DNA of 46,401 nt, filler included, from Jimgerdemannia flammicorona (taxonomy: Eukaryota): the NCBI GenBank assembly GCA_003990765.1. It is 2 parts of 2 records of this genome, joined end to end, with 100 filler letters (N's around TTAATTAATTAA, not from the genome) between each part and the next. Parts side by side here need not be neighbours in the genome. Positions count along the whole stretch, not along the records: positions 23,256 to 46,401 come from RBNJ01001149.1; 1 more part is not named here. One strand, written 5' to 3'. Both the position numbers and the translations under genes were made by a program. A model generated the notes under the pieces. The model had not been told where the DNA came from. It searched no databases and was given only the letters and a program-made list of their open reading frames with translations. Positions 1,819 to 35,800 of the stretch are shown in pieces (the first letter of the stretch is position 1; each line of letters begins with the position of its first letter).

Positions 1819-4800
1819 ATGAACAGTACAACCAACATTTTTTCTTTGAACATGAATAGGCTGAGGGGCGCGGTTTGATGCAGGAACATTTTTATTTGGT
1901 TGAAGGGATTGGAGGCCGATGTCTTCCTCTTGCAGGATGTCAGGTGCGAGGATGATGCTGATAGGATGGAATGGACTAAGGAATGGGGTGGTATGGCAAT
2001 TTGGAACAGCAAGGTCAGGATTCCGGTTTGGAAAGGCAGAGGGGAGAAAAAGGATGTGAGGAGCTGGAGTGAGAGACTGGTCTGGGGTGAGTGGATTCAT
2101 GCAGGTTGGGAGCTGGTCACAGTTGGCTCCTGTTACTGCCCTGCTGTGCAGGGGGAGCATGTGGATTGGGTGGAAGGGCTCCTGGAGAGTGGGATCCTTG
2201 CTGAAGCTGGGTTGGATATGCTTGGAGGAGATTTCAATATGGTTCGGGATATACAGCTGGATAGAACTGATGGAGGACAGGGTGCAGAGAGCAGGAGTGG
2301 GGGGTTAGCGACATGGAAGGAGATTGAAAGGCTAGGAGCACTGGTGGATGCTGGTAGGGAGTACTGGGGGGACAGGAGGGTGTATATGCATTGGGCTGGA
2401 GGTCTGGGGATAAGGATTGACTGGATTCTGACAGCTGACTGTTGGGGTCGCGATGTTTGGAAGGTGATAGAGGTAGAATGGTGTCTATGGTCAGATCACT
2501 GGGGCCTCTTGGGACAGGGGTGTTTTGGGGGAAGTAGAGATGGGCCTGGACATTAGCACCTAAATTCCTCCTTGTTGGATGATGAGGCCTGGTGGGAGGA
2601 GTGGGTGAAAGACATTCAGCTGAAGGTAGCAAATTGGCAGCAGGAAGGGACCGTAATTGGGGTTCGGTGGATGAGGATGAAAGAGATGGCCAGGATATAT
2701 TGGAGTGAGGCTGGTAGAGTGGCTGGGAAGCAGCAAAGGCAGAAAGTGTGTTGGGCTTCTACTAGATTGGCTAGGCTCCTAGAGGAGTGGGCGAGACTGG
2801 CAGCAGTGGAGAGAGAAGAGAATTAGAGAATAACGAGGGTGAGGATGGAGGTTGGGGAACTGCAACAGGTGCTGCGGGAAGAGGAAGAGTCAAGGGTGCA
2901 AGGCCTGGTGGCACGGCTTCGTTGGCAGGGGCTGGAGGAAGGGGAGAGGCCTTCCAAGTTTCTCACAAGGACACTTCGAGTGAGAAGGGTACAGCAGTGG
3001 TGGGAAGGGGTACTTGACTCGGATGATGTACTAGTGCATGGTGTACAGGACATCCTTGAAATGCTGAAGGCATGATGTAGTAGATTGTGGAGTGAGGAGG
3101 AGGGTGGGGCAGATGCTACAGCCATTGATCAAACATTAGAAGATTGGCACCCACCACAAGCTGAGGGACTAGGTGACCTGGTAATACCTGTGAAGGAGGA
3201 TGAGATCCACCAGGTTCTTGCCGCGAAAGCCTTGGGTATGGCGCCTGGGGAGGATGGCCTCCCCTGGGACTTCTGGAAGTGAATGGTTGGAGTCCCAGGC
3301 ATATTGGGGGAGTTGACAGCACTGTGTGACTCTATATTGCAGTCAGGGAGATGGGTGGGAGAGCAAGACCTTGGGCTGGTGACGATGCTTTATAAGAACA
3401 AGGGAAGGTGAGAGGATTGGAAGAACTGGCAGCTGATAATGTTGCTAGATATGGACAGGAAGTTGGTGACTAAGGTGGTGGTCACAAGGCTACAGAAGAT
3501 AGCCCAACAAATTGTGGGTGTTGAGCAGAGGGGCTTCATAGGGGGTCAGCTTATTAGAGATGGCATGGCCTGGGTATATGAAGTTATTGAAGGTGCTCGA
3601 GCCTGTGGACTAGATGGGCATCTTGTCTTCTTGGATCAGGAGTGGGCTTATGACCGAGTGTGGCGAGTCTGGCTGGCGAAAGTATTAGATAGAATTGGAG
3701 TTCTGGGCCCATTTCTGTCAGCAATGGTCAGCCTACTGGAAAGGAGTAGGGCTGTGCTCATGTACAATGGGCATCGAGGGGTGGCTTTCCCTCTGGATAG
3801 GGGAGTGCCCCAGGGAGACCCACTGTCCTCTATTTTGTATGCTCTTTCATTGGAACCTCTAATGGACAGGATTTGGCAGAAGATCATGGGGCTCTCCATC
3901 TATGGCATTGGCTGGAAGGTTGGAGCCTTTGCAGATGACATGGTGGTTGGTTTGGGAGTAATTGCAGATGTCGAGGAGCTCTGGAAGACAGTAGAGGGGT
4001 ATGAGGAGAACTCTGGGGTAAAGCTGAATTGGCACAAGTGCGAAACAATGGTACTGGGCAATAGCTTGGTGGGCAGAGAAGTTATTGGAACAATTGTTCC
4101 CACTGGAGAGACAGTGTGGTACTTGGGCATCTATTTGTCAGTCTATGGGTCTGTTTTGCCCAGGCTGTGGTGGGAGCAGAGGATTGGAATTTGGGAAGAA
4201 GACCTGCAGGGTTGGGGGGGTAGATACTTCTCTCTGGCAGGAAGGATCTCGATTTTGAATGTATACTGGCTGCCGAAGCTGTGGTATTTGGCCTATCATC
4301 TGGACTTCCCAGCCTGGGTAGTGAAGAGATTGGTGAAGATGGCCAAGGGATGGATTTGGGCTGGTAGACAGAGTCAGATTGGTTGGGAGACTTTGTCCCT
4401 ACTGGTGGCAAGAGGTGGTCTTGGGCTGGTGGACTTCTCCAAATGACTACACTGCTTGAGGGCTTGGTGGCTGAGGAGGGCAGTGGAGTTGCCTGGAGGG
4501 GGCTGGGTCCCCCTGCTGCAGAAGATATGGGAGAGGCAGACATCACCTAGAGGCTTGACTGGTGATCTTCTTTCATTAGTTGGGCTTCAGAACACTGCGC
4601 AACTGAGATATAAAGGCTTCTGGTGGGGGATAGCCAAGGGGGTACACTGTATTGGTATTCGCTGACAAGGGGATGAGGGGGAGAGGGCTTGGGGCCCAGC
4701 GATGTGGAGATGGGATAGCATTCTTCTGGGAGGCATGCCTTTACTGGAGTTCAACATTAGTGATGGCATCGAATGCCAAAGGGGTCCAGGCCAGGATCTG

Positions 4801-5549: not shown

Positions 5550-8500
5550 GACAAGACCTCCCAGATGATCTGACTCCTTCTTCTAGCCCAGATTCACTCC
5601 TTGGCCAGCTTCATCAATCTCTTCACCACCCAGGCTGGAAAGTCCAGATGATAAGTCAGATACCATAACTTTGGCAGCCAGTAGATATTCAAAATCAAGA
5701 CATGCCCCATCAGAGACAATTGGTGACCCCCCCCAACTCTGCAGAGCCTCCCCCCAGATTCCAACCCACTGCTCCCACCAGAGCCTGGGTAGAACTGACC
5801 CATAAGCTAACAGATAAATACTCAAGTACTGCACTGCCTCACCAGCAGGGATGGTTGTTCCAATAACCTCCTCTCCCATCAGACTATTGTCTAACACTAA
5901 TGTTTCACACTTATACCAATTAAGTTTAGCCCTAGAGTTCTTCTTGTACTACTCCACTATCTCCTTAAGCTTCTCAACATCAGTAATTAATTCCAGGCCA
6001 ACCACCATGTTATCTGCAAAGGCCCCTACTTTCCACCTAATATCAAAGATGGAGAGCCCAACTATCTTCTGCTGAATTTGATCCATTAAGGGTTCCAGAG
6101 AAAGAGCATATAGAATTGGGGACAGTGGGTCCCCCTGGGGTATCCCTCTACTAAGGGGAAATGCTACCTCTCTATGTCCATTATATATGAGCACAGCCCT
6201 ACTCCCTTTCAGTAGGCTGATCATTGCTGACCTGAACTAGTGTGGAACCTCAGTCCTATCCAATACTTTTGTCAGCCAGACTCACCTCACCTAGTCATAA
6301 GCCTTCTCCTGATCCAAAAAGATCAGTCAATCATCCAATCTACTAGCTTGTGCCCCTTCAATAACTCTATATACCCAGGCTGTGTCATCCCTAATGAGCT
6401 GGCCTCCTACAAAGCCCCTCAGCTCAATGCCCATGACTTGCTGGGCCACCTTTTGTAGCCTTGCGACCACTACCTTAGTGACCAACTTTCTGTCCATATT
6501 CAGTAGCATAATCAGCCTCCAGTTCTTCCATTCCTCTCACCTTCCTTTGTTCTTGAAAAGCAATGTCACCAATCCCAGATCCTATTCCCCCACCTATCTC
6601 CCTGTCTGTAAAATAAAATTACACAATGCTATCATCTCATCTAGTACTCCTGGGACTCCCACTATCTTCTTCCAGAAGTCCCAGGGCAAACCATCCTCCC
6701 CAGGCACTGTACTCAGCATTGTTATGGCAAGAACTTGGTGGATCTCCTCTTCTTATACTGGCAATACCAAGTCTCCCAATCCATCTATTCACAGGAAGTA
6801 CCAATCCCCTAATGCTCAGTCAATGGTATCAGCATCTACCCCATCCTCCTCCTCACTCCACAATCCACTCCAACACTCCTTTAAAGATCCAAGAATGTCT
6901 TATATATTATGCACCAGTATACCATCAGAGTCAAGCACCCCCTCCTATCTTTGCTGCACCCTTCTCACCTGAAGGGCTCTTGTGAGATACTTTGAGGATC
7001 TCTCTCCTTCTTCCAAATCCTGCCAATAGAGCTGTGCTGCCAAACTCTGCACCTTTGCCTCTTCCTCCTCCCGCAATACCTGTTGTAGTTCACCAACCTC
7101 CATTTTTACTCTTCTTGATCTCCAATTCTCCTCTCCCTCCAATGTTGCCAGTCTTGCCCAATCCTCCAAGAGTCTAGATAGTCTACTAGAAGCCCATCTC
7201 ACCCATTGCCTCCTCTGTTTCCCAGCCTCCTTGCCAGTCTCCCTCCAGTAAGTCCTGGCCATCACATCCACTGAACATCAACTGGGGCACCTTCCTGTCT
7301 CCAGCACTCCACCCTCAGTTGAATGTCTGCAGCCCACTCATCCCACCAGAACTTATCATCCAATAAGGAGGAATTGAGGTGCCAATGTCCAGGCCCATTC
7401 CCACTCCCCCCAAAATGCCCCTGTTCTAAAAGCCCCCAATGATCTGACCAAGGACACTATTCCACCTCCAGTGACTTCCAAACATTCAAACCCCAGCAGC
7501 CAGCTGTCAGAATCCAATCAATTCTCATCCCCAAGCCCCCTGCCCAATGCATGTATATCCTCCTATCTCTCCAGTACTCCCTACTCACATCCACCAGAGT
7601 ACTCAGCCTTTCCACTTCCTCCTATGCTGCTAGTCCTTCCCTCTGACCCTCAGCTCCTCGTCCTCCATCAGTTCTATCCAACAGTACATCTTGGACCATA
7701 TTGAAGTCTCCACCAAGCATATCCACCCCAGCCTCTGTGAGGATCCCACTCTCCTGAAGGCCCTTCATCTAATCCACATGCTCATCCCATATAGTGGGGC
7801 AGTAATAGGAGCCCACTGTGACCAGCTCCCATCCTGCACATATCTACTCACCCCAGACCAATCTATCCCTCTAGCTCTGTATATCCCTTATCTCCCCTCT
7901 GCCTTTCCATGCCAGAATCCCAACCTTGCCCTTTCAAACTGCCTCACCTCCCCATTCCTTCATCCATTCTAGTCTATTCAAATTATCTTTACACCTGACG
8001 TCCTGCAAGAGGAAGAGATCGGCCACCAATCCCTTCAGCTAAGTAAAAATGTTCCATCATTGATAAGTACCCCATAATCCATTCATGTTCAAAGAAAAAA
8101 TGTTAGTTGTACTATTCATAATGAAATATAGTATGTTATCAAGTCCTTCCCTACTGCTCTATGTTCATCTCCTCCTGTGCCAAATCCAGATTATATTCCA
8201 CAGTCACCTCTACTTCCTCAGCTCTCTGAGCCTCCAATCCAGCCAACAGCTCATTCATCTCCCCATCTGCCTTCTTCTTGAACTCCTCTTGGTACTTCAG
8301 ACAGACCTCCTACCAGAGCTGCAATCTATATCACTTGGCCCAACAGTATTAGCCCTCTCACCAGTAACCCCAGTTAGCTCCACCTCCTGCTCCTTATCCA
8401 CCTCATACCCTTCCTCCTCCAGATATACTACAAGGATCTCTGCCTTCAATGCCATCTCCATACCATCCCTCTGCAGGATCCACACCTGATGCTCATCACT

Positions 8501-10200
8501 CATTACTCTCAAGACTACCTCCCCCAACTCTTCAGCTATCAGGTTATTCATCATCCTGCACATCCAAAGTAGATTTCTCACCTCCTTCCCTCCAGGAGTT
8601 GCCAGTCTCCTGCCATCCAACATTGTAGTATCAGCCCCAGCACTTGCAGTCTCATCTCACACCTCTGGGATATCCACCAGTTCCTCCTCTCCAACTGCCA
8701 CTACTTGGCCCCCATTTGCTATCTCAGGAACTCCAAATTGTATATGCTGGGCCCCCTTCATCAGCATATCTTCTCCCACCTTGCTTCAGGAAGCCAGACC
8801 TTACCTAATAAGAGGAGTAGAGGTAGGTGATCCCTCCCAGTCTTCTTCCCAGACCTCAAACATACCATCAGCATATAGGTCACTGCCAGCTGCTTTCCTG
8901 TCCTCTCCTGTCCCCTTCCCTGCACTCTCACCATCCTCGTCAGCCCAGACACTCACCTTGGCACCCCCCATTCCCACCATTCCACCTGCCACTTCTGTGG
9001 TCAATCTTCTATCTTAGCCAGCAGCTCCTTCTGATGCTTATATCTCTGAGCTTTTTCCCATTGTCCCTTGTTCACTTGAATCTGCTTCCCATCCACTACC
9101 TCCAGGTGTGTTGACTCCACAAAAGCCCTCCACACCTTCGCTCACCACTCTACTGCTCCACTCAGCTCTTCCAGTGCCTCCAGCAAGTCCTCTTCCTCCT
9201 CCTCACTCTCTTTCACCCTCATCACCTTGTACAATATTGCCCCTCAGACCATCCCTGAAGGCCAGTCTCTTGCCTTACTGGTAGCTTCTTTCTCTGCCAG
9301 CCAAATCCTCATGTCCACATCTCCAGTCCTGAGCAAGGTCTCTTCCCAGACTCTGAATCTGATATCCACTACCTCTCTATACTCTGCCATGACCTCCTCG
9401 ACTCTCCTTCTCATCTCTACCACCATCACCATGGGCACTTCTTTTACCAGCAGTTGGACCACCCTGGGGTCCCATTTCAGGCAGCATACCATTGGAACAC
9501 ACATCTCTCTAACTATCAATCCAACCTTCAGTGCTTCCTCCAAAGGCTCAGCCTCTTCAAAGTCTACCTCCACTCCCTCCAATCCCTTCAGGAACTTTAT
9601 GGATACTGTTTCAGCCACCTGCTTAGCAATAAGCCCCAGTACCATTTTTGCTATCACTGCTAGGACCCAGAAGCACAATATCACTGTAAATGCTGAGATT
9701 GATTTTTTGAGTAACAGGGCCACTGCCAGGCCCATCACACTATCTACCAAATCTCCTTGCCTTCCAAATCTCAGTCACTCAGCCATGCCCTCAGCAGTTA
9801 CATCTGGATTTTTTTCCAGATTGGCAGTCTCTTCTCTATCAGCCATCATGCTCCCCCCAGCCACTACTCTCCTAGCTCCACTGCTCTCACTACCAAGAGC
9901 TACTCCCCTGTGAACTGCAGTCTTCTCCATCTTCTTGTCTTTCCTCAGTCAACCCTCTAACCCAGATGACTGCTGCATCCCCTTCACCATCTCTACAAAG
10001 CTCACCCTCCCAGACCTCTGTCCTCCACTGCTGCCTCCTCCCCCACCTTGTCCTCCTGCCAACAGCCCCCTCATACCCCCTCCGAGGCTAGGATCTCTTC
10101 CCATCTGCTGCCAGTTGAATATACTAGGGCTGCCCTGCCCAGTATATACCCCAGATTGCTTGTTATTTGTCATTGCCTTAGTACCTTTCTCTAATAAATG
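5550..10200 (-). mobile_element. L1/Tx1-like LINE, copy B (same family as copy A, more decayed); truncated at 5550 by copy A
   Basis: Reverse-complement homolog of copy A: RGIPQGDPLSPILY and AFADN (5949-6224), ORF1 pieces 8297-8623 and 9244-9750, probable ORF1 start ATG at 10173. Ends at a point homologous to ~4397 of copy A. Confidence 0.92.
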
Positions 10201-12889: not shown

Positions 12890-15800
12890 AATCATATTTT
12901 TGAACTAAGTCAGTAGTATTCTGAAGATTGGTTTTAGGTTCCCACATCACATTATGGATAGAATAATCTTTCTATTTGACAAGATACTTGGGATGGTTCT
13001 TGTGGCCATATTTGTTCAACTTCTTAGTTATTAATAATGACAGGTGTGGTTTTGTGATATAGTTCAGAAATAGCTTATCATCATTTTCATTATATCACTT
13101 GAGATATTGAATATTGAAAACTAGGTGAATCTTGATGGTATCTGGTAGTACTAATTTGTAGGAAGTTAGAGAGACTTGTGTGATGACTTCAAATAATCCA
13201 ATGAATTTACTGTTTAGCTTTATAGATGGTCTGTGCTTGAGATTATCAACTCAGTATCCTCAGATGTCCAGTAGAACCTTTTCTCTAATAGTGAAAGTTT
13301 CTTCTCAGTAGTATTGGTTGACATATTGTAACTATTGTTCTTAAGCTTGAGATAAATTCTCAATAGTAATCTGGTTTAAGTTGTACATTTGGAGTAGGAA
13401 TTCTTTGTTGGCTTTGACAGTAGAGAGTTCATCAGTAGTTAAGATAAGTATCAGAGAAGTGTTTGGGTTTTATCCTATATTGGTGAAGAATGGGGTCATT
13501 CCAAGAGAAGCTTACTTGCTATTGTTATAGGCAAACTTGACTCTAATAAGGTGTTCATACTAATTATCTTATCTATAAGAAACATAGTTCCTTAGTATTT
13601 TTTTTAGAGTTCAGTTTATTCTTTCAGTTTGGCTATCAGTTTTGGGGTGAAAGGCTGTAGATAGTGTAAGTTTGTTCTAAGGTGTATATGTAGGGCTTTC
13701 TAAAAATAGCTGGTAAACTTCAGGTCTCAGTTACTAATAATTATTTTAGAAAGACCATGATAACAGAAGATATTGTTAAATAATAGTATAGTAATTTCAG
13801 ATACTATTGCAGTTATAGCAGTAGATACAAAGTTAGCTTATTTACTAAGATAGTCTATGAAGACAACAATTATATCTTTTCTATTCTTGGTTCAGGGTAG
13901 TTGTATAATAAAGTCTATAGAGATTCGTTCCCAATTAGCAGATGGTACTAGAATGAGATGGAGTAGATCAGATTTTGCTAGTGTTGAGGATTTGTTGTAT
14001 TGGTAGATATCATAGGAAGTGATGTAGGTCTTTAGCTGATCTGCCATATAGGGCCAATAGAAGTTTTGGGAAATAACTTCATAGTATTTGTTGAATCCTA
14101 GATGTTCAGCTATAGGGGCATTATGATATTTGAATAGGATAGTTCTTTAGAGGTCTCAATTATTTGGAATATACAATCTGTCCTTATAGTAGATAGCATT
14201 ATCCTTTAGTTGGTATTGATGATACTGGGTATGCTTGTTAGCATTATTACTACTTAGGATTTCTCAGAATACTTGAGCTTCTTTATCATCAGCATATACT
14301 ATAATAATTTATTCTATAATAGAGTTGGTAACCAGATGAGAGTTTGGATAACTTCTTCAATTAGTGGTCTAGAAATTACATTGGCAACAATGTTCTCCTT
14401 GCTAGAGTGATACTGGATTTTATAGTCAAAGTTGGTAAGGACTTTCATCCATCTGGCTTACTTTTAGGAAAGGATAGCCTGGATCTTGATATTAACTAAT
14501 GATTTGTAGTCAGTAAATATAGTGAAGTGTACTCCTTCTAGGTATGATTGCCATTTGATCAGAGTGTCTACAATGGCTAGCATTTCTTTCTTATAGGTTA
14601 TATAGTTGATTTTGGCATTATTGAACTTGTGAGAATGATAGGCCACAAGGTATTCTTCTTGTATGAACACTGCTCTAAGAGCTAGATCAGAGGCATTAGT
14701 AGTAACTTTGTATAGTAGAGCAGAGTTTGTTACTTGAAGTACTGGAGTAGTTATCAAGGTCACCTTTAGTGCTTAAAAGGCTGTATCTTGTTCAGATTCC
14801 CAATTTGCAAGATTGTTGAAGTCTTTTTCTTACTTTGTGGTCCAAGACTATTCTTCTTTCTTACTATGCTTAGTTATTTGGGTAAGGGTAGTAGTGATCT
14901 TAGCAAAGTTTACAACAAATCGCTGATAATAGTTTGCTAATCTCAGAAATAACTAGAGGTCTTTCAGCTTCTTTGGTCTGGGCCAATTCTTGATTGTAGA
15001 GATTTTGCTAGGGTCTACTTTGATTCCATTCAGTCTAAGAAATAGAATTTCTTTCAGGAGAAATTTACATTTGCTGAGTTTTGCAAAGAGTTAGTTTTCT
15101 TAAAGTTTCAGTAGTACTAGTTTAAGATGTTCAAGATATTTCTACAGGGTTTTGCTGAAGACTAGGATGTCATCAATGTAGACAACAATAAATTTGTCTA
15201 GATATGGGTATAGGATGATATTCATCAGTGTCTGGAAGGTTGTGGGAGTATTAGTTAAGTCAAAGGGTATAATTAGGAACTTGAAATATCCATGTGAGTT
15301 CCTGTTTTGTAGATATCTTCTTCTTTCATGGCAATTTGCCAGTAACCATTTTGCAGATCAAAAGAGCTCATAAATTATGAGTTAGTAAGTCTATCAAATA
15401 TTTCATCAATTCTGAGTAGTGGGCAGTAGTTCATGATTGTTTGCTCATTGAGATCATAGTAGTCTATGTACATTTATAGGTCTCCTCCTTTCTTGACAAA
15501 AAGAGGACCGATATACTATAGAGTAATACATGTGCATCAATTTCTCTCAGAGATATGTGGTAGATTGACTTGAAGGCTAGCTTGATATCTGGGATGGTCT
15601 TGATGATATAATCTACTACTTGTTTAGATGGTAGGCCTTTTGGGAGTTTCTTTGGGAATATGTTCAGAATTTCTAGAGTAGGGGTCAGACACAGCTGTTA
15701 ACTTTGGAAAAGTCTTCTTCAAGGTTCTCAGATTCTCCTTTAGATGGTCAGATAGAGATAGCAAAGAGATGGCATTTCTTGGCCAATTTCTTAAGTTGTA

Positions 15801-23155: not shown

Positions 23156-23255
23156 NNNNNNNNNNNNNNNNNNNNNNNNNNNNNNNNNNNNNNNNNNNNT
23201 TAATTAATTAANNNNNNNNNNNNNNNNNNNNNNNNNNNNNNNNNNNNNNNNNNNN
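23156..23255. other. Artificial scaffold linker / assembly gap
   Basis: Exactly 44 N + TTAATTAATTAA + 44 N = 100 bp; the 12-mer gives stops in all six frames. Confidence 0.97.
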
Positions 23256-23470
23256 TCCCTCCCTCCCTCCTTCATTCCATTGTGTCTGGCTATCGGCCTC
23301 GATGATGGTTTCCTTCCCTCCCTCCTCTCTCTCTCTTTTATTCATGGGTGTTCCATTGTGTCTAGCTATGCCTCAATGATGATTCCCTCCCTCTCTCCCT
23401 CCTTCATTCACGGGTGTTCCATTGTATCTGGCTATTAGCCTTGATGGTTTTCCTCTATTTCTCTCTCTTA
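23256..23470. repeat. Three degenerate ~70-bp tandem repeats with CT-rich spacers
   Basis: TTCCATTGT(G/A)TCT(G/A)GCTAT..CCT..ATG.. recurs at ~23275, ~23351 and ~23417. Confidence 0.7.
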
Positions 23471-23572
23471 TTTATATTTATTATTCCAGCTATTTCTATT
23501 CTTTTCTATTCTATCTACTGACAAGTCTATTTATATGTATTTATATTTTTTATTCTTCAATTATTTTACCAG

Positions 23573-24898
23573 ACAACCTCCAATGCTCTAATTGGTAGTC
23601 TTCCCTTTTCAACCTGTTGTAAATGTGGTGCTGGCGGACATATATATGAAGGGTACAATATTGCTGGTTGTCAGAATGTGATCTGTGTTGGTCATATTGA
23701 TGAAGACAGACCATTGCTCTGTGCTCCTAATATAATGGAGGATTCTTGGACATGTCCAATGCACAGTAGTATACCAGTTAGTATTATTTATTTTATTTTC
23801 TAATTGTTATATTATTTTGAATCATAGTTAATAAATATAATATATTTTATAAAATATATTTAGGAATCTATTCGCTTTGATGCCAATATCAATATTGATA
23901 TTCAGACAATTGAATTCCATGAGATGGCTTGGGGTGATATTGAAGGTGCTGCATGTACAGTATTTGCAGGATACAGATATGGTCAGGTTACAATTGTTCC
24001 ACATATATTTCAAGATGGAGATTCTCTTCAGGAATGTGCTAAGAATATTAATAACAAGTAAGTAATAAATATTATAAATAATATATTATTTATTTATTTT
24101 ATATTAAATATTTAAAGTTATTAATATATTTTTATTTAATTATTTTTAGATGGCATTCAGGATCTCAAAAGTGGTTGATTATAAAGACTCATACTAATGA
24201 GGAAGGTGATCTTTGGTTTGAACGTGATGTAAATGGAGATGCCTGGTCTCTTACACAGCAAGATGTAAGTTATATATACTATATATATTATTATTATTTA
24301 TTTTTATTTTTATTTTATTTTTAATATATATTTTATTCTATTAATAGTTTTTGAAAGCACTCTTTGAACCATCTAAATTCAATAATATCAATATTGTTCT
24401 ACTTGTGTGTGGCACACTGGTGTTTCCCAAGATCCACAAGACTAAAGATCAGCTTTTGCATTCATATCAATCTTTCATTGATACTGTCAAAAGGTTGGTT
24501 TTATTTAATATATGTTTATATTTATATTTATAAAATAATCTGATATATATATATTTCTATTTATTTAAATTAGTATTACTCAAGGCAGTTGCATTTTTTT
24601 TACCAGACATGAATTGGAACCACCAAGGATAGTATATGCTCTTATGAGATCTATTGAAGATTCTGAGTTTGGTCATAAATCTTTAAAGGAAACTGTGATG
24701 GATCATTTCAATACTCTTAATGATGCAGATGGGACTCCAGTCTGGGTTCTGGAGAATGGAGGAGGAACATATATTTATAGAAAAGTTACTTCTTGTACAA
24801 AGCATCCCTTTGGTCAAAAGATTCAAAATAGGTTCTGTGTTGAAATCATCAATTATTCTGTTCAAATTGTACAATGCAATGCCTCCAGATTGAAATAA
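23573..24898 (+). CDS. Spliced gene, at least 327 aa: PHD-like Cys/His finger followed by an uncharacterised domain; 5' end not identified
   Basis: Exons 23573-23776, 23864-24057, 24150-24264, 24348-24493 and 24574-24898, separated by AT-rich 80-92-bp GT..AG introns. They splice into one stop-free frame ending at TAA 24896-24898. Confidence 0.82.
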
Positions 24899-25479
24899 AT
24901 TAGTAATGGACCAGATGACGAAGGGCTACAGGATGACGATGGTCTAGATGATGAAGATGGACTGTAGGAAGAGGGACCTCAGGAAGACGAGGGATGAGGG
25001 ACCACAGGACTGCAGGATATGATGGATGACGCTGGACCGCAGATGATGATGGACAGCTGGACTGTTCTCTACTCACCACTGCTCACCACTCATCATTCCA
25101 CCACAAAACCACCAGCTGCTCTTGCTTGCTGCGAATAGCTAGCCCATTTGCCACTCATTCCCAATAGAGTGAGGGGCAGTTATTGTCTGAGATCTTTTGC
25201 GTCATGCTGGAACCTGTTGAGGCAAAATGAATCTGCCGATGAATAACCCACTAGCACATACATAACCCAGATTACCAGAAATTTCACCTGAAATTCCACG
25301 TACATAACCTATGCTGCAGGAGAACAAGGGATAGAAGACTGGCCACAGGACTGTAGTGGAAGATGGACTGCAGGATGGATGGACGGACGACAGACTGCAG
25401 GATAGATGATAGACTTTGAGATAAATGACATAGACTGTAAGGACTGTAAGATAGGCAATGAAACCTTGCATACCAGTAG

Positions 25480-25660
25480 CATGATGGACCAGTGTTGCTG
25501 GGCAACCATAACCCACCACTGCATAACCATAGCCTTGCCATGTAACCATAACCTGCCCCTGCATAACCATGTACTTGCCATGTACTTGCCATGTAAGCAT
25601 AGCCTTGCTGCATAACTGTGATCTGCCACTGTGTAGATGGCATAACCATCGCTGCCTAGT
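25480..25660. repeat. Degenerate minisatellite (GCATAACCAT / CTTGCCATGTA units)
   Basis: Repeated ~10-20-bp motifs visible directly. Confidence 0.65.
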
Positions 25661-25759
25661 TGTATTTCAAGCACTCTTACTCACTGAACCACAGGACAGA
25701 TAATGGATAAATGATAGACTGGGCAACCATAATAACCCACTATTGCATAAATGGTTTTC

Positions 25760-26005
25760 TTGAAATTGAGAGACCAGGTGGGCCCTAAATCGAGATATTG
25801 GGTGGCTTTAAGTCAAGAGCAGGTGGCCTTAATTACGAGGCTGACAGGCAATCTTAAATCGAAATGCCAAGTGGCCTTAAGTCAAGAGTAGGTGACCTTA
25901 AATTGAGAGACTGGGCAGCCATAAAATCTAGAGGCCAAATGGCTGGCCTCTCAAATTAAGGCTGCCTGGTCTCTTATAGGTAGGTGGTCTTAAGAGACCT
26001 TTAAT
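25760..26005. repeat. Array of ~23-24-bp units (consensus ~CAGGTGGCCTTAAATCGAGAG), forward copies then inverted copies
   Basis: About 7 forward units at 25760-25935, then reverse-complement units (CTCTCAAATTAAGGCTGCCTGG) near 25945-25975. Confidence 0.75.
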
Positions 26006-26153
26006 CAATCTGGAGAGGCTAAAATTTATAAATAATAATAATAATATTTCTCTATTTAATTGGATTCAATAAGATTTACGATTATATTATATAGTACTAT
26101 ATTATATATATTAAATTTTATAAATAGTAACAAATGAATATATATAAATTAGA

Positions 26154-26237
26154 TTATGTTTAGGGTTAGGAATTAGGGTTAGGGTTAGGGTTAGGGTAGC
26201 TTTAGGTAGGGTTAGGTTAAGTTATGTTTAGGTTAGA
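26154..26237 (+). repeat. Interstitial telomere-like (TTAGGG)n tract
   Basis: Four perfect tandem TTAGGG at ~26173-26196 with degenerate TTAGG/TTAGGG copies on both sides. Confidence 0.85.
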
Positions 26238-27554
26238 TTGGAAAAAATTCAAATAAAATGATTTATATTATATATATATATTATTTATATAATATATTTA
26301 TTATAATAAGTAAAATAATATATAATTAAGTTATAATAGTTAAAGTAGTTATTGAGATAATTGGTCTCTAAACTGCTTTTATCATTATAGCTTACTGAGA
26401 TTTTCATTTATATATATATAAATATATACTTAAAGATATTTATAATAATTAAAATCTATTAAAACAGTCCAATTACTAAATATATAACTGATTAATATAA
26501 AAGACAATAAGAAAACAAAATGAAGTATACAAATAAATTTGAAAAAGTAGAAAGCAAAGAATATAAAAAGATAATACATATTCTAGATTAGAATTATATA
26601 TTTTATTTGCAAAAGTTTTAAAAAGAAGAGTAAAGAGAAAAGAGGCTATTAGAAAAGATCCACAAGATATGCTTAAGTACAGAAGTATAGCTACAAATAT
26701 AGCCTTAGTATCAATTCTTTATATTAATTATATCTTTTATATTGGTCCTATCTCTCACACTAATATATATATATATATATATATATTATTATCAATAATC
26801 CTATATGTTTGCCCATACTATCTAATATATTTATTTCTGTTATCTAATATATTTGTCCTGCTCTTTGTGATATCAGTCATTACTAATATTATATAATTTT
26901 CAGTTCAAGTTTTATACTATTAAATGTTATTCTATATAATTATATTATCAGAAAGCCTTTAATCAGTATACTTATTTTGGTTGAATTTGGATGAATATTC
27001 ATATAGAAATTGAGATTTTTGTCACAGATCTATATTTATTCATCTCTATCATTTGCCATCCACCACTTACTACTATTGCTCACCACTGCTCACTATTTCT
27101 GTAGACCATTTCCATTAATATATCCTAGCAAAATAATGTTCACTTTTGATATAATACTATAGGCATAAATGTCCAACATGTCAAATCAGACTTTTGCTCA
27201 TCTATTTTATTAAGAATGACATAGTCCCACAATCTAGAAGATAGGCAGTAAACCATTTAAGTTGGTGTTCAAGATTCAGATAATGGTTTTGTTTTGGAAT
27301 ATAAGGTAGAAGGGGGTATTCTTCTACATACTGCACTATTACATTAATAGTTACAATTGTGGATGTAAATATTCTTCTGCACTAGTCACTGAATTGCTAA
27401 AGCTGCTAATTTAAAGATCTGGTATCCAAGGCTACAATTTAGTAACTAATATAGTTATGGATATTATGATGACAATTTCAGCCTTAAATCTATGTCTAAT
27501 TGAGGCCATTAGATGGTCAATCTGAAATTTGGTGTTTGATATGACAGGTAGTCT

Positions 27555-28375: not shown

Positions 28376-31210
28376 TATTACTAGCCATCAAATCGAAATA
28401 GAGCTCAATTGAATCGATTGGATCGTTCGGATTGTTTGGAGGCTGTCAAAAATGCAGTGCAATATTTTCAGAAATTTCCAGAGTCAACATCTCATAGTAT
28501 TTGTGGTGTTACTGGACAATTTGGAATTGATGAAAAAGTTTTACGTCAAGCTCTGAAAACCGGATTACCTGGTCTAGGTCCTAAAACTATTCTGACTACT
28601 GAGAAGAAGAAGAAGTTATTGGATATTGTCTTAATATGCAACAACTTGGATTTGGCTTGACAAAATCTTCAATCAATTATTCAGTCTTGCAGATATTTAA
28701 AACCAGACAACATTCGTTTTCTACAACAAAAGGTCCAGGTTGAGATTGGTGGAATAGATTTTTAGCTGATCATTCAACTATATATTTCAGAAAACCTCAA
28801 CCACTGACATAAGTAAGAGCTAAAAAAGGCAGATATCATGGATTCTGGTGAGGAGTGGTGGATGGCACTCATAGGATTGGTCTGTGTTGGGAAGGGAATG
28901 TAGCAGAGGAACAGTGAGGGCCGGGAATGTGCAGTGGCATAAGCTACTGCTGGGAGAATCACTAGTGATTGACTTTGAGTTGGGGGCAGGAGCAGAGAGT
29001 CAGTATGGTGTGGATCAGAACATATAGTCAAAAGGCTGGCAACATGTTGGGATTGGAGAGGAATGGGATTGGGCAGGGCTGTGGACTTGGGAGGTAGAGG
29101 TAAAGTAGATTCCTCCCAAATTCTAGATTGTCTAGTAGAGGGTGATGCAGAGGAATGTCATGCTGAACTTTAGGTCTGGACATTTGGTGGCAGGGGGCAC
29201 TTTTGAGTGTGAGGAGTTTCTTGGAGTTGAACAGGTGAGGAAAGTGATACAGATCCCGGAATATTGGTTGGGGGAGTGTGATGTTCTACATAGTTTCTAG
29301 GAGGTGGTGGCATAGCATCTGGAGGGGGGGGGGCTCTAGGGGATCATGGGGATGGCCAATGGGATGCTTTGAAGTGGTGGATGTTAGGGAGGATTGGTAA
29401 TGAGTAGCTTACCTTAGGGTGGGTTCTTGCTATATGGGTTGGTCTAGCAAATCATTGGCAGGCAGTTTTTGAGGATAGCAAGTTGATGACAAAGGGAGAG
29501 AGATGGCATGATGGAAATGGTTACTGGTGGATATTATGTCTGGATGGCAGAGGGGGTGGGGGAGTAGGGGAGGCTGTTGGCAGAATTTGGTGAGATGATT
29601 TATGACAAGAGTGGGGAGAGGATTGTAGTTTCAGGATCAGAGATAGTGTTTGATAGGGAAGGGGTGGGAAGGAGGGTGAGTGTGGAGATATGGTAGGGCA
29701 GAAAGTGGGGTGGAGGCTGCTGGTGTGGTATGAGGACTCAATGCATATATATATTGTGAATAAATAAGGACCATAGCCTATAGAAAAAAGAAAAAAAAAA
29801 AAAAGAGGTCAAAAAGACAATCCTTTTATTATTAATAATCATTTTGATGAACTTCAAAAAATTGTCAATGAACATTCTCTTACTGCTGAGCAGATATAAA
29901 ATATGAATTAAACTGCTTTTAGTCTTTCTGGAAGACTTCAACATGTCTTAGCTCTAAAAAGTGCTTAATAGATATCTAAAGTATCAGTAGCAAATACAAC
30001 AGACCATATATCTCTTTGTATGAAAATTTCTACTGCTGTACCACCATTGATAATCTATAAAGGAAAAAGAGCTATTGGGAATCTATTAGATGGAGCACCA
30101 CCTGGTATAGTTATGGGATTTACTGAAAAAGGATATATCAAAGAAGATCTCTTTAATCAGTATATTCAACATTTTATTAACTCAATTTCATCAACAAGAT
30201 CTACACCAACAAGATCTGTTCTACTTATGCTTGATGGACATAAAAGTCATATCAATCTTTCAAGTATTAAAGCTTGCAGGGCTAATAATATTTTGTTATT
30301 AGCATTATCTTCAAATACAACATATATATTACAACCCTGTGAGCTTTCTTTCAAGACTTAAAAACTGGATATGATCATGCTTGTGATCAATATCATAATA
30401 CAAACAATGGAGCTATAGTTACAAAATATACATTTGCAAGACTATTTGATGAAGCTTATCTGAAGACTTATACAGCTGGAAGAATTATCAATGCATTCAT
30501 ATATACTGGTGCTTGGCCAGTAGATTGTAAGCTATTTCTGCTGATAGATTAGTACCATCTTTACAAACTCAGTATTTTATACCTTCTCAACCTCTATCTC
30601 AACCTGAATTTCAATCTGAACCTCATGTTGAAACTCAATCTCAACCTCTTCAACTTCAATCTCTATCTAAATTACAACCTCAGCTTCAATCTTTTCAACT
30701 TCAACCATTACACTTCCAATTTTTAACACCAGAAGAGGAGATAAAAATATTGAAGCAGAAAGTAAACTCTCTGGAAAATGAATTGATATTGCTTAGAGAA
30801 GAAAATCGGCAGAAAGTAAACTCTCTGGAGAATGAATTGATATTGCTAAGAGAAGAAAATAAAAAATTAAAACATCCTGGAACAACATCATTGGCAACTA
30901 TATTCAAATATCTTATACAACCACCTAAACTGCCTCAATTAAATAAAGAAGAATCAATAAGAAGAAAACAATTTCCATGTCTCAATTATCAATAGCTGAA
31001 GAAATATATCAAATTTTCAAGCATCAAGAAGATGATGAAAAGAAAAAAAAATGAAGAAAAAGAAAGAAAGAAAAATGAGAGAGAAAAGAAATGTGAAGAA
31101 ATAAAGAAAAAGAAAGAAGACATAAAAAGAAGGAAAGAATAAAGAAAGAAATAGCAAGAAGAAGAGAAGAAAAAGTAAGAAAAGAAGAAAACACAAGGAA
31201 AGAAAAAAAG
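28370..31210 (+). pseudogene. pogo/Fot1-type (Tc1-mariner superfamily) transposase, interrupted by a LINE fragment
   Basis: HTH/CENP-B-like N-terminus (GPKTILT.., GPG*DWWNRFL); NMN*TAF (cf. NMDETGF); PPLIIYKGK; LLMLDGHKSH; LSSNTTYILQPCE (cf. LPPHTSH.LQPLD); K/E-rich tail. 54-bp tandem duplication at 30755-30860. TIRs not identified. Confidence 0.88.
28832..29802 (+). mobile_element. 5'-truncated LINE (related subfamily) inserted in the pogo transposase
   Basis: G-rich; QIPEYWLGECDV matches copy A QMPEHWVGECEV; AATAAA plus poly(A) to ~29804; diverged 17-bp TSD AAGAGCTAAAAAAGGCA (28815-28831) / AAGAGGTCAAAAAGACA (29803-29819), 14/17 identical. Confidence 0.85.
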
Positions 31211-32899: not shown

Positions 32900-35800
32900 A
32901 CCAATTAATTATATCCATCCTTGCATTTTAGCCTTTTTTCCATATGTATTGTACAAAATTTTCCTAATATCTTTGCCTCTTTTATCCAATCTTTTACTTT
33001 AGAACTTTTAGACTCTTTACTTGTAATTCTAATATGACACTTTTGATTATTATTTTTTACTATAAAAAAAGTACATTATTCATCTTCAGATATATCTGTT
33101 CTTTTTCTTTTTTCTTTTGTATACTATCTCCTTATCTATTATCTATATAAGCATTGTCTTGTACTTATTTAGTTAATGTATGATTTCTAATAAACTCTTT
33201 GTGAGATTTAAGATATTTTTTTCTTTTTTCTGTCAAATTCATTATTTGATATTGTTCTTCTTCTTTTGCAAGATGTGAGAAGAATTGTGCTCCTTTAGAA
33301 AAGAGTATAATATTTTGACATTGAAATACCTTAATTATATACTCTAGTCCTTCATTCTAAGCTAAGTCAGCTTCATGAATTCTATTGAAATATTCTTGAA
33401 AATTTTTATACTTATATCCAATATAAGGAAGTCACTTATGATGTAGACTTTCATTTTGATTTGTTCCTCCACCATCTGCATAGAAAGCATAGTCTTTGAG
33501 CATAGCTTATATAATTTTCTTTTTCCGAATCTCAGCATCCTGATAGATAGAAATTGTTCTTTCATCAGCTCCAGGCTCTGGCCTATATAATTTATCTTAT
33601 GTCAGTGGTGGTATACAGATTTGTTATTGATTGAAGAATATGATGATATATAGAATCAGCAGTGAACTGAAGTTGTCCTGATAGTAATTCTATATTGTTC
33701 ATTGTTGATACTTCTTCTCCAAGCTGTTTATATGGAAGCTGGATATAATATGCTTCATTACCATCCTCATCCTCATCCTTATCCTCACTGTCATCACTAG
33801 ACTGATTGTCAGAATAATTGTCAGGCTGTTCTATCAAACCTTGTTACTCTATGGATAGGCTATCAGGCTGCTCCAGAAAATCGAGCCCAAGGGATGGGTC
33901 ATCAGAATGACCACTGTGTTTCAGTAAATTGCATCCATCAGAATAATTGCCAGACTGCTCCACTAAACTGAGTTGCTCTTTAGAGCTGAAATCATCTTGT
34001 AGCTCTATGGATGGGCCATCAGAATCATGGGCCTGCTCTAAATCATCAAACTGCTCCAAATCAAGTTGCTTATCTTGTCACTATATGGATGAGCCATCAG
34101 GATGACCATTATGTTTCAGTAAATCATGTCCATCAGAACTGTTGGGCTGCTCTAAACCAAATTGTTCTTTGGAGCCGAAATCATCTTGTTGCTTTATAGA
34201 TAGGCCATCAGGATCATCGAGCTACTTTAAATCGTCGAGCTGCTCCAAACCAAATTACTCATCTCATTGCTCTATAGATGGGTCATTAGGATGACCATCA
34301 CGTTTCAGTAAATTGTGTCCATCAGAATAACTATCAGGCTGCTCCACTAAACCAAGTCACTCTTTGGAACCAAAATCATCTTGTTGCTCTATGGATGGAT
34401 CATCAGAATTGTCAGGTTGGTCCAAATCGCCAAGCTGCTCCAAATCATCAAGCTGCTCCAAATCATCAAGCTGCTCCAAATCATTGAGCTGCTCCATTAA
34501 ACCGAGTTTCTCATCTCGTCGCTCTACAGATAGGCTATCAGGACAATCATTGTATTCCAGTAAATTGCATCTATCAGAATAATTGTTGGGCTGCTCTAGC
34601 AAATTGAGTCTATCCAGCTCTGGCAAATCTAGTCCAGGTCCTGGAGATACATTGAGAATGTTTGGGACACTTTTGTAAATATTAAAAATTCTGTAAAGGA
34701 ATATTATCATTATCATCTGTATAATGAGAGAGAATAATATATGAATATGTTCCAATATCAAAGTGATTATACTCTGATATATTAAAAGGAATAGATGATA
34801 AGTCAATTGTCTCTGATCTCAATTGTATAATGTCTCCTTTATATATATTCTTAATATTAGCAGTTGCTTGAAATAGTAATGATGTACTATTTAAAATAAT
34901 ATCATGAAATCGATGAGGACATCCATCTGAACAGTTATTATGATTATCAATATTCCAGATTTTTTAAAAGCTTGAGTAGATTGTCTTTACCACCTTTGCT
35001 CTGAAGATTAATCTTAATATACTGACTATAACTTTTAAGTATAGATGCTGCAAATCTTTCTTAAGTTCTTCTTTTTATGAGCAAAGTCATATGTGCTAAT
35101 CATCCCAGTATTATCAGGAAGATTGCCTTGAATCTGCTTTACTTTAGTAAAAGCTTTAGAATCTGTATCTGTATATAGAGATTTAATCCAAATATTTCTA
35201 TCTTTTAGCTGCTTCATAATATTATTTAATACTTCTCCTGCCATTGCATTACTAGATCTATAGAAATTCTGATCTCCACTAGATTTCATAATTCATTTTC
35301 TATTAGCATCTTGTTGAGATATATCAATATTATTTCTAGATACAATACTTGTTACAATAATTTTAGCTTTTGAGTTCTGCTTCTGTTCTTGTATTATAAG
35401 TGTTCCTGAATAATTTTGTATATTTCTTTTATGTGTCCATGGTTTATCTCATATTACTTGCAAAATAATTCCATTTTTATCTGCAAGATTAATAGCATGT
35501 TTTCTCTACTTTTTTGTGCCAATAGTTTACAAATATTCCCATGATGTTGATGTTATTGATGAAAGGTTTTTTTGCTAATAAGAGAAAGATCTATTGCTGC
35601 AAAGAATTCACTATATTCTTTATAATCTATAGTAGCAATAGCAGAAATAGCAGCAACTCTAACTTGAGCAAGAGATTGTTTTTTCTTTCTAGCTTCAGTA
35701 GGTTGTATCTTTAGTCCTCCATTAAAGATATTTAGTTTTTTGCAATTTATATAGATAAATGTTAATGCTATTGATAGTGCATATTTTTGCTCATTACAAT

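Follow-up and report, generated by a model that had tools for sequence, protein, structure and literature searches.

A repeated gene family of Jimgerdemannia flammicorona that may join a histone H3-tail mimic, a PHD/ADD-like finger and a putative protease-like domain

The window, by which we mean the whole 46,401-nucleotide stretch of Jimgerdemannia flammicorona DNA that was analysed (assembly GCA_003990765.1), consists of two contigs joined end to end, and the gene considered here lies near the start of the second (RBNJ01001149.1). Positions 1-23155 belong to a separate contig, and the real upstream DNA of the gene amounts to 317 bp only. The following features surround and make up the gene, with exons numbered from the first one visible in the window.

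23156..23255, no strand: contig join, composed of an N run, a 12-base TTAA-repeat linker and a second N run; the features flanking it are not neighbours
23256..23572, plus strand: 3' end of intron 0, a remnant of a ~65-74 bp tandem array, with its AG acceptor at 23571-23572
23573..23776, plus strand: exon 1 (the second exon of the full gene), encoding a PHD/ADD-like Cys-rich finger that ends in W-x-C-P-x-H, with Tyr at the third Cys position
23777..23863, plus strand: intron of 87 nt, phase 0
23864..24057, plus strand: exon 2, in which a putative alpha/beta domain begins
24058..24149, plus strand: intron of 92 nt
24150..24264, plus strand: exon 3, with a hydrophobic strand closing on the conserved His147 (CAT, 24190-24192)
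24265..24347, plus strand: intron of 83 nt, phase 0
24348..24493, plus strand: exon 4, with a hydrophobic strand closing on the conserved Cys192 (TGT, 24408-24410)
24494..24573, plus strand: intron of 80 nt
24574..24898, plus strand: exon 5, which completes the putative alpha/beta domain and also carries a small Cys/His-containing segment at the C-terminus and the stop
24899..25942, plus strand: 3' flank, wholly or partly common to C2949, C4156, C13383 and C312

The remains of LTR and LINE elements located 5' of the gene in the window were rejected as gene context because they lie on the other contig, across the join. They comprise a decayed LINE-like element (1879-4446) with Pfam matches to an endonuclease and a reverse transcriptase, a second LINE-like copy, apparently in the opposite orientation, at about 6300-9900, and an LTR retrotransposon RNase H fragment (14467-14772, Pfam). 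On the gene's own contig, the stretch at 25600-27433, which contains a TTAGGG array (26160-26216), is also found directly 5' of exon 1 in contig C10384 (L024), where it replaces most of intron 0; it may be a small mobile element in its own right or reflect a tandem arrangement. A DDE_1 transposase fragment (29972-30358, E 6e-13) lies 5 kb 3' of the gene and is absent beside other copies, and a 189-bp tandem repeat containing an 18-bp subrepeat occupies 33893-34444. The gene region matches 37 contigs of the genome, the window's own included, and the 3' flanks of the remaining copies of the window's clade differ from that at 24899..25942.

The original prediction of five exons and four GT-AG introns was reproduced exactly, giving 984 nt that encode 327 aa and a stop, and all of the motifs quoted in it are found in the spliced translation. 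The introns have a GC content of 4-10%, compared with 34-41% in the exons. Alternative acceptors for the last intron, which lead to a stop at residue 228 or to a 322-aa frame, were set aside in favour of 24574, which fits the homologues best. Among the 12 other copies of the window's clade, each of nine splice dinucleotides is covered by 11-12 copies and conserved in 8-11 of them, and indel events are about 15 times denser in introns than in exons (32.8/kb and 2.1/kb, respectively). The exon structure in the window is confirmed as real, beyond chance, because splice sites are kept across copies and indels are concentrated in introns, with splicing itself predicted from these alignments. Intronless homologues from other sources are, moreover, collinear with all of exons 1-5.

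The 327-aa frame has no start codon, and position 23573 directly follows an AG acceptor. As a complete gene, the five-exon model falls short by one exon, since sister copies with more upstream DNA carry a further first exon, which begins with an ATG, ends at a phase-0 GT donor and precedes a tandem array of 1-1.8 kb. The repeat at window 23256-23460, formerly described as a flanking array, corresponds to the end of this 1-1.8 kb array and is in fact part of the gene's own first intron. The additional exon encodes a mimic of the histone H3 tail, MART[R/K]QTAKKST; in C1904 it reads MARTRQTAKKSTFG, and the host histone H3 reads MARTKQTARKSTGG. It is in register in nine copies of the clade, with a phase of 0 that matches exon 1, and in C1904 and C11061 the ATG is accompanied by a GT donor at +111, exon 1 beginning 1187 and 1293 bp after the ATG, respectively. 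When the PDB was searched with the tail exon, all 59 matches listed were H3 or H3-like (best E 0.003), and none of the 25 matches to this exon in the genome runs on into a histone fold. Its first 12 residues are kept despite varying codons, and the remainder of the exon diverges. Lys9 is conserved in 31/31 copies and Thr7 in 30/31, with position 4 occupied by Arg in 14/31 rows and by Lys in 16/31. Copies such as C12322 and C16440 start with Met-small-Arg-x-Lys, Arg taking the place of this Lys in the window's clade. The tail exon of the window copy is invisible because it would lie beyond the contig end, outside the window; judging from its sisters, the window copy very probably possesses one as well.

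The finger encoded by exon 1 follows the pattern C-x2-C, C-x4-C-x4-C, a variable loop, C, and then W-x-C-x2-H. Its initial description as PHD-like, better put as PHD/ADD-like, is in keeping with a PDB comparison in which the PHD fingers of KDM5A, ATXR5 and PHF21A account for three of five matches, all of them weak (E 0.33-3.8); a finger-only profile search returned no match. The zinc motif of PHD fingers is Cys4-His-Cys3 (PMC8166343), and the family departs from it with a C4-C-C-C-H arrangement, in which the fifth ligand is Cys in 44/52 rows and the last His is present in 36/51. The finger is thus best termed PHD/ADD-like and non-canonical, a candidate PHD member at most. The claim that the window copy has no visible disabling mutation did not survive comparison with its relatives, as the third Cys position carries TAC (Tyr) at 23654-23656 and is Cys in 39/51 other copies. 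The replacement is a G>A-type change, the window copy being the sole row without Cys among 18 selected, and the copy is thus without the full set of finger zinc ligands.

Downstream of the finger, His147 and Cys192, 45 residues apart, each close a hydrophobic strand. The His column contains 41 His, 4 Tyr and 3 Phe among 48 rows, and the Cys column 34 Cys, 10 Tyr and one stop among 45; in both columns one C>T or G>A change is enough to produce the Tyr codons, and Phe comes from the three rows of the intronless clade. The expectation that His and Cys would be conserved in homologues held across all four intron-bearing clades, which are only 33-37% identical, and failed in the intronless clade (C335, C2478, C30351; P0003, P0005, P0009), in which the finger and the whole domain are kept and both residues are absent. 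Among outside homologues, His is kept in four of the eight that cover it and Cys in one of the four that cover it.

This layout of strand-His and strand-Cys had been taken as the sign of a caspase/CHAT-like domain, and the layout itself was recovered; the fold found no match in Pfam, profile comparisons no better than shuffles and a moderate signal from ESM. Scans with Pfam and NCBIfam, run exon by exon or on His/Cys-less homologues and of lowered power for that reason, gave no meaningful family match, nor did one with PADLOC, and a search of the genome for DUF6642, likewise of reduced power, found no match. The genome contains 93 CHAT-domain matches, mostly within long open frames; the family's loci are absent from these matches, in a search of the same lowered power, and no family contig is among them. 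Profile-profile comparisons with hhalign covered four host CHAT domains and 7-18 DUF6642 proteins, with DUF6642 against CHAT as the positive control; the real scores were reached by 28/100, 34/60 and 3/60 shuffles, and the positive control failed too. The best local alignment to a host CHAT domain placed Cys on Cys, with an overall score within the shuffles and under the same failed control. In the ESM Atlas, two different queries led to DUF6642 clusters at 0.92 and 0.88, one of which is 11% CHAT, with recognition scores of 2184 and 2299, below the guide value of 2300, and fewer than 170 shared features.

DUF6642 is presumed here to belong to the caspase-like clan CD, on the basis of the mixed ESM cluster and of motifs only. 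A strand-His-Gly followed by a strand-Cys is present in 4/18 of the DUF6642 proteins examined, the other 14/18 being without them. A glycine after the catalytic His is usual in clan CD, and the His of the present family precedes Thr, Ala or Val, not Gly. Counted by hand, the spacing from His to Cys is 45 residues here, 43 in one host CHAT domain and 37 in one DUF6642 member. A caspase/CHAT-like fold is, on these grounds, a lead that we consider reasonably probable, and for activity as a clan CD cysteine peptidase the chances appear evenly balanced.

The finger exon has at least 56 matches in the genome, so that the question of copy number raised at the outset is answered in favour of a multi-copy family. 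A tree of 43 rows, built from five outside proteins and those copies in which 180 or more codons align and stops number nine or fewer, separates about five clades: that of the window, its sister, another two with introns and one intronless group. The ratio of 0-fold to 4-fold transversions is 0.11-0.30 in 7/7 pairs that do not include the window copy; it is 0.33-0.56 between the window copy and other clades, values that are inflated by saturation, and 0.78 and 1.4 in two pairs inside the window's clade, which offer few sites. At the level of codon change, the family is shown to be under purifying selection. Most copies have decayed through C>T and G>A changes and contain stops, including the two nearest to the window copy. 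The window copy itself deviates at one of 68 well-conserved columns, compared with a median of nine, and is among the three least-changed of the 33 copies scored. It contains 3 CpG dinucleotides where 32 are expected, whereas five modelled copies of other clades contain 35-40 against 47-64 expected, and its depletion suggests a long methylation-driven decay.

Copy C12246 splices, as a predicted model, to a stop-free 370 aa with an ATG, the tail, all finger residues, the His and the Cys, and is apparently intact, with two in-phase sites that could each be its first donor. Spliced models of C12322, C12085, C16440 and C2739 as intact copies were discounted, as an intron was retained or mis-placed. 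Paralogues of different clades occur in tandem at L103-L104 (C944) and L108 (C2739), each with its own array motif and adjoining a PD-(D/E)XK nuclease gene on the opposite strand, with an AAA-ATPase-like match also at L108; C944 carries three sites of the tail exon and C2739 two genes. Beyond this genome, a profile search of 1.84 billion representatives identified 13 relatives, and of the ten looked up two come from Endogonales fungi, the others including metagenomic proteins. Word-based protein searches returned nothing, or just two proteins known already, and no relative was present in the metagenome contigs and phages searched.

In the 27 copies having both first exons, intron 0 measures 0.5-1.8 kb and contains a repeated core. 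Three 11-bp motifs sort by protein clade in 26/27 of these copies, the one exception being a decayed copy without an exact motif. The first 11-mer is found in 10 copies, belonging to the window's clade and its sister, the second in another clade (11 copies) and the third, which is near-palindromic, in the last clade (5 copies), with array units of about 54 to 163 bp. The remnant in the window retains three copies of its clade motif, at 23283, 23359 and 23425 (0-1 mismatch). Genome-wide, the paired motifs occur 300, 168 and 36 times, and the reversed controls 0 times. Eight further array sites consist of one with a whole gene, two with the tail exon alone and five with no exon in the stretch examined. 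Adjacent arrays of two clade motifs are observed at L251 (C132:3900-7600), where no exon of the gene was detected. The match of motif to clade could also be explained by shared descent alone.

When the copies were checked for neighbouring KDZ or other transposases, one clade showed a transposase of another type. That clade is collinear with a convergent rva_4 integrase-core transposase (E 3e-59) located 0.5-2 kb downstream on six contigs, and its upstream gene is HECT-like by eye, with no Pfam match. We infer that the transposase is of IS3EU-like type, elements that have been described previously (PMC10045372). No KDZ transposase, and hence no KDZ carrier, was found among the 133 flanking ORFs scanned, which were picked from 413 by length and complexity. 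Flanks in the window's clade are of several kinds, with no transposase common to them. Mutator-like, FAR1, Harbinger-type, PiggyBac-type and LINE neighbours were set aside as carriers, since they differ from copy to copy, and common flanks run into AT-rich sequence, insertions or contig ends, defining no element ends. The intronless clade adjoins a Rad52-like gene, both here and in the case of an Endogone protein, after which comes a frame identified as helicase-like from its motif only. At L113:9017-10000 and L114:1-4000, the Rad52-like gene is followed by a long decayed frame with primase-like and helicase-like motifs by eye and no Pfam match; the stretch is common to C2478 over 4.7 kb and may be a self-replicating element. 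A Sir2-family gene (L129:2514-3212, E 5e-23) lies just 3' of one copy on the opposite strand.

Our preferred reading, held tentatively and with somewhat less than even confidence, is that the family encodes a chromatin effector of mobile elements, in which the tail gates or baits, the finger docks and the peptidase-like domain cuts. The gene family would have spread as cargo of mobile DNA, with the window holding exons 2-6 of six, and the full protein of about 365 aa would comprise the H3-tail mimic, the PHD/ADD-like finger and an alpha/beta domain with strand-His and strand-Cys. The PHD fingers of KDM5A, ATXR5 and PHF21A read unmodified H3K4, and the finger of this family may read unmodified H3 tails. 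The protein's own tail could dock on the finger or receive marks from host H3 enzymes, and so serve as a switch. Once on chromatin, the putative protease would cut a silencing factor or the tails of histones, allowing the carrier to escape silencing, and the tandem arrays would act as cis docking sites, by analogy with VANC. A more elaborate version, in which a self-gated histone-tail protease serves as a transposon counter-defence, appears unlikely. Here the protein's own H3 tail would be the internal ligand of the finger, host H3 marks or nucleosomal tails would switch the caspase-like domain on, each clade would target its own motif array, and the module would have been swapped between different mobile elements.

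It is conceivable, if rather doubtful, that the protein cuts nothing and acts instead as a decoy or scaffold that uses its tail and finger to sequester or recruit host writers and readers of H3K4 and H3K9, with the His and Cys being structural or metal-binding or the domain a dead protease fold. The intronless clade, which retains finger and domain without the two residues, the 14/18 DUF6642 proteins that are likewise without them and the empty protease family scans (Pfam, NCBIfam, PADLOC) would all be expected of such a protein, but both residues persist, at strand ends and with dyad-like spacing, across the four intron-bearing clades, whose identity is only 33-37%. No tail exon was detected 5' of the His/Cys-less C335 and C2478, and therefore tail and dyad tend to co-occur, which also argues against a decoy. 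The family could also be a host immune or cell-death sensor, in which the tail baits the histone-modifying or histone-cutting proteins of invaders and its modification releases a CHAT-like protease, the copies having multiplied via duplication and hitch-hiking on repeats. We regard this as quite improbable: stops and C>T or G>A changes fill most copies, as they do silenced repeats, the 93 CHAT matches include none on the family's contigs, a transposase runs collinear with one clade and Rad52-like and helicase-like genes with another, and no NTPase or gasdermin neighbour was found among the 133 ORFs, even though the abundance of CHAT matches in the genome, the tandem paralogues of different clades (C944, C2739) and the variation of flanks between copies are in keeping with a sensor.

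For the window copy alone, the balance tips slightly towards a recent pseudogene, a probably damaged member that has acquired no stop yet and has no function. Its low number of deviations from conserved columns (1/68 against a median of 9 in 33 copies) and its nine intact splice dinucleotides run counter to this, and are set against the G>A-type replacement of a finger Cys by Tyr, the CpG count of 3 against 32 expected, the stops in the two nearest copies and a first exon of its own that is unseen. This reading is compatible with a mobile-element chromatin effector at the level of the family.

No description of an architecture joining a tail mimic, a finger and a putative protease was found in the literature searched, which was mostly outside subscription journals. 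Few transposon-encoded anti-silencing proteins are known, and the VANC study leaves open how silent marks are removed (PMC5735166). If the effector reading is true, uniting the mimic, a reader-like finger and what may be a protease in a single chain would provide a direct anti-silencing mechanism and extend histone mimicry to fungal mobile DNA, and with this combination mobile DNA could interfere with host gene silencing. The apparently intact C12246 and the naturally His/Cys-less clade make the idea testable.

Several known systems share parts of this arrangement. The PHD fingers of KDM5A, ATXR5 and PHF21A (PDB 7klo, 5vab and 2puy) align with the family finger at the C-x2-C start and the W-x-C end, whereas the family has Cys in place of the central His, a terminal His and a sixth ligand beyond the variable loop. 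CHAT and DUF6642 proteins share with the family a hydrophobic strand that ends in His, then a short aromatic strand and a helix, and lastly a strand whose terminal Cys lies 37-45 residues after the His, and they include inactive offshoots; the family differs in having no HMM or profile significance and a His without a following Gly, and in the fusion of its domain to a finger and a histone tail rather than to TPR or NLR modules. Like VRK1 and other proteins that mimic the H3 N-terminus (PMC8166343), the family protein begins with Met-small-Arg as H3 does, but its mimic extends over 11-14 residues, shares its chain with a PHD-like finger and belongs to a repeated fungal gene. Chromatin-related cargo is carried by other DNA transposons, including TET/JBP in fungi and SET in HarbingerS and MuDR (PMC12730594), and the present family resembles these in its chromatin-related gene and in the position of one clade beside an integrase-core transposase. 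The cargo here is instead a mimic, a reader and a putative protease, and the terms PHD, protease and peptidase are absent from that paper (PMC12730594). VANC of Arabidopsis VANDAL (MuDR) is likewise an element-borne gene with arrays of a family-differing short motif in its own intron and upstream, and its targets are family-specific arrays in introns (PMC5735166). VANC binds DNA and causes demethylation (PMC5735166), whereas the arrays here would be read by a protein in which no DNA-binding part was identified. The family resembles VANC in layout, by analogy and not as a member of the VANC family, and, unlike VANC, it combines mimicry of a histone with a finger and a putative protease.
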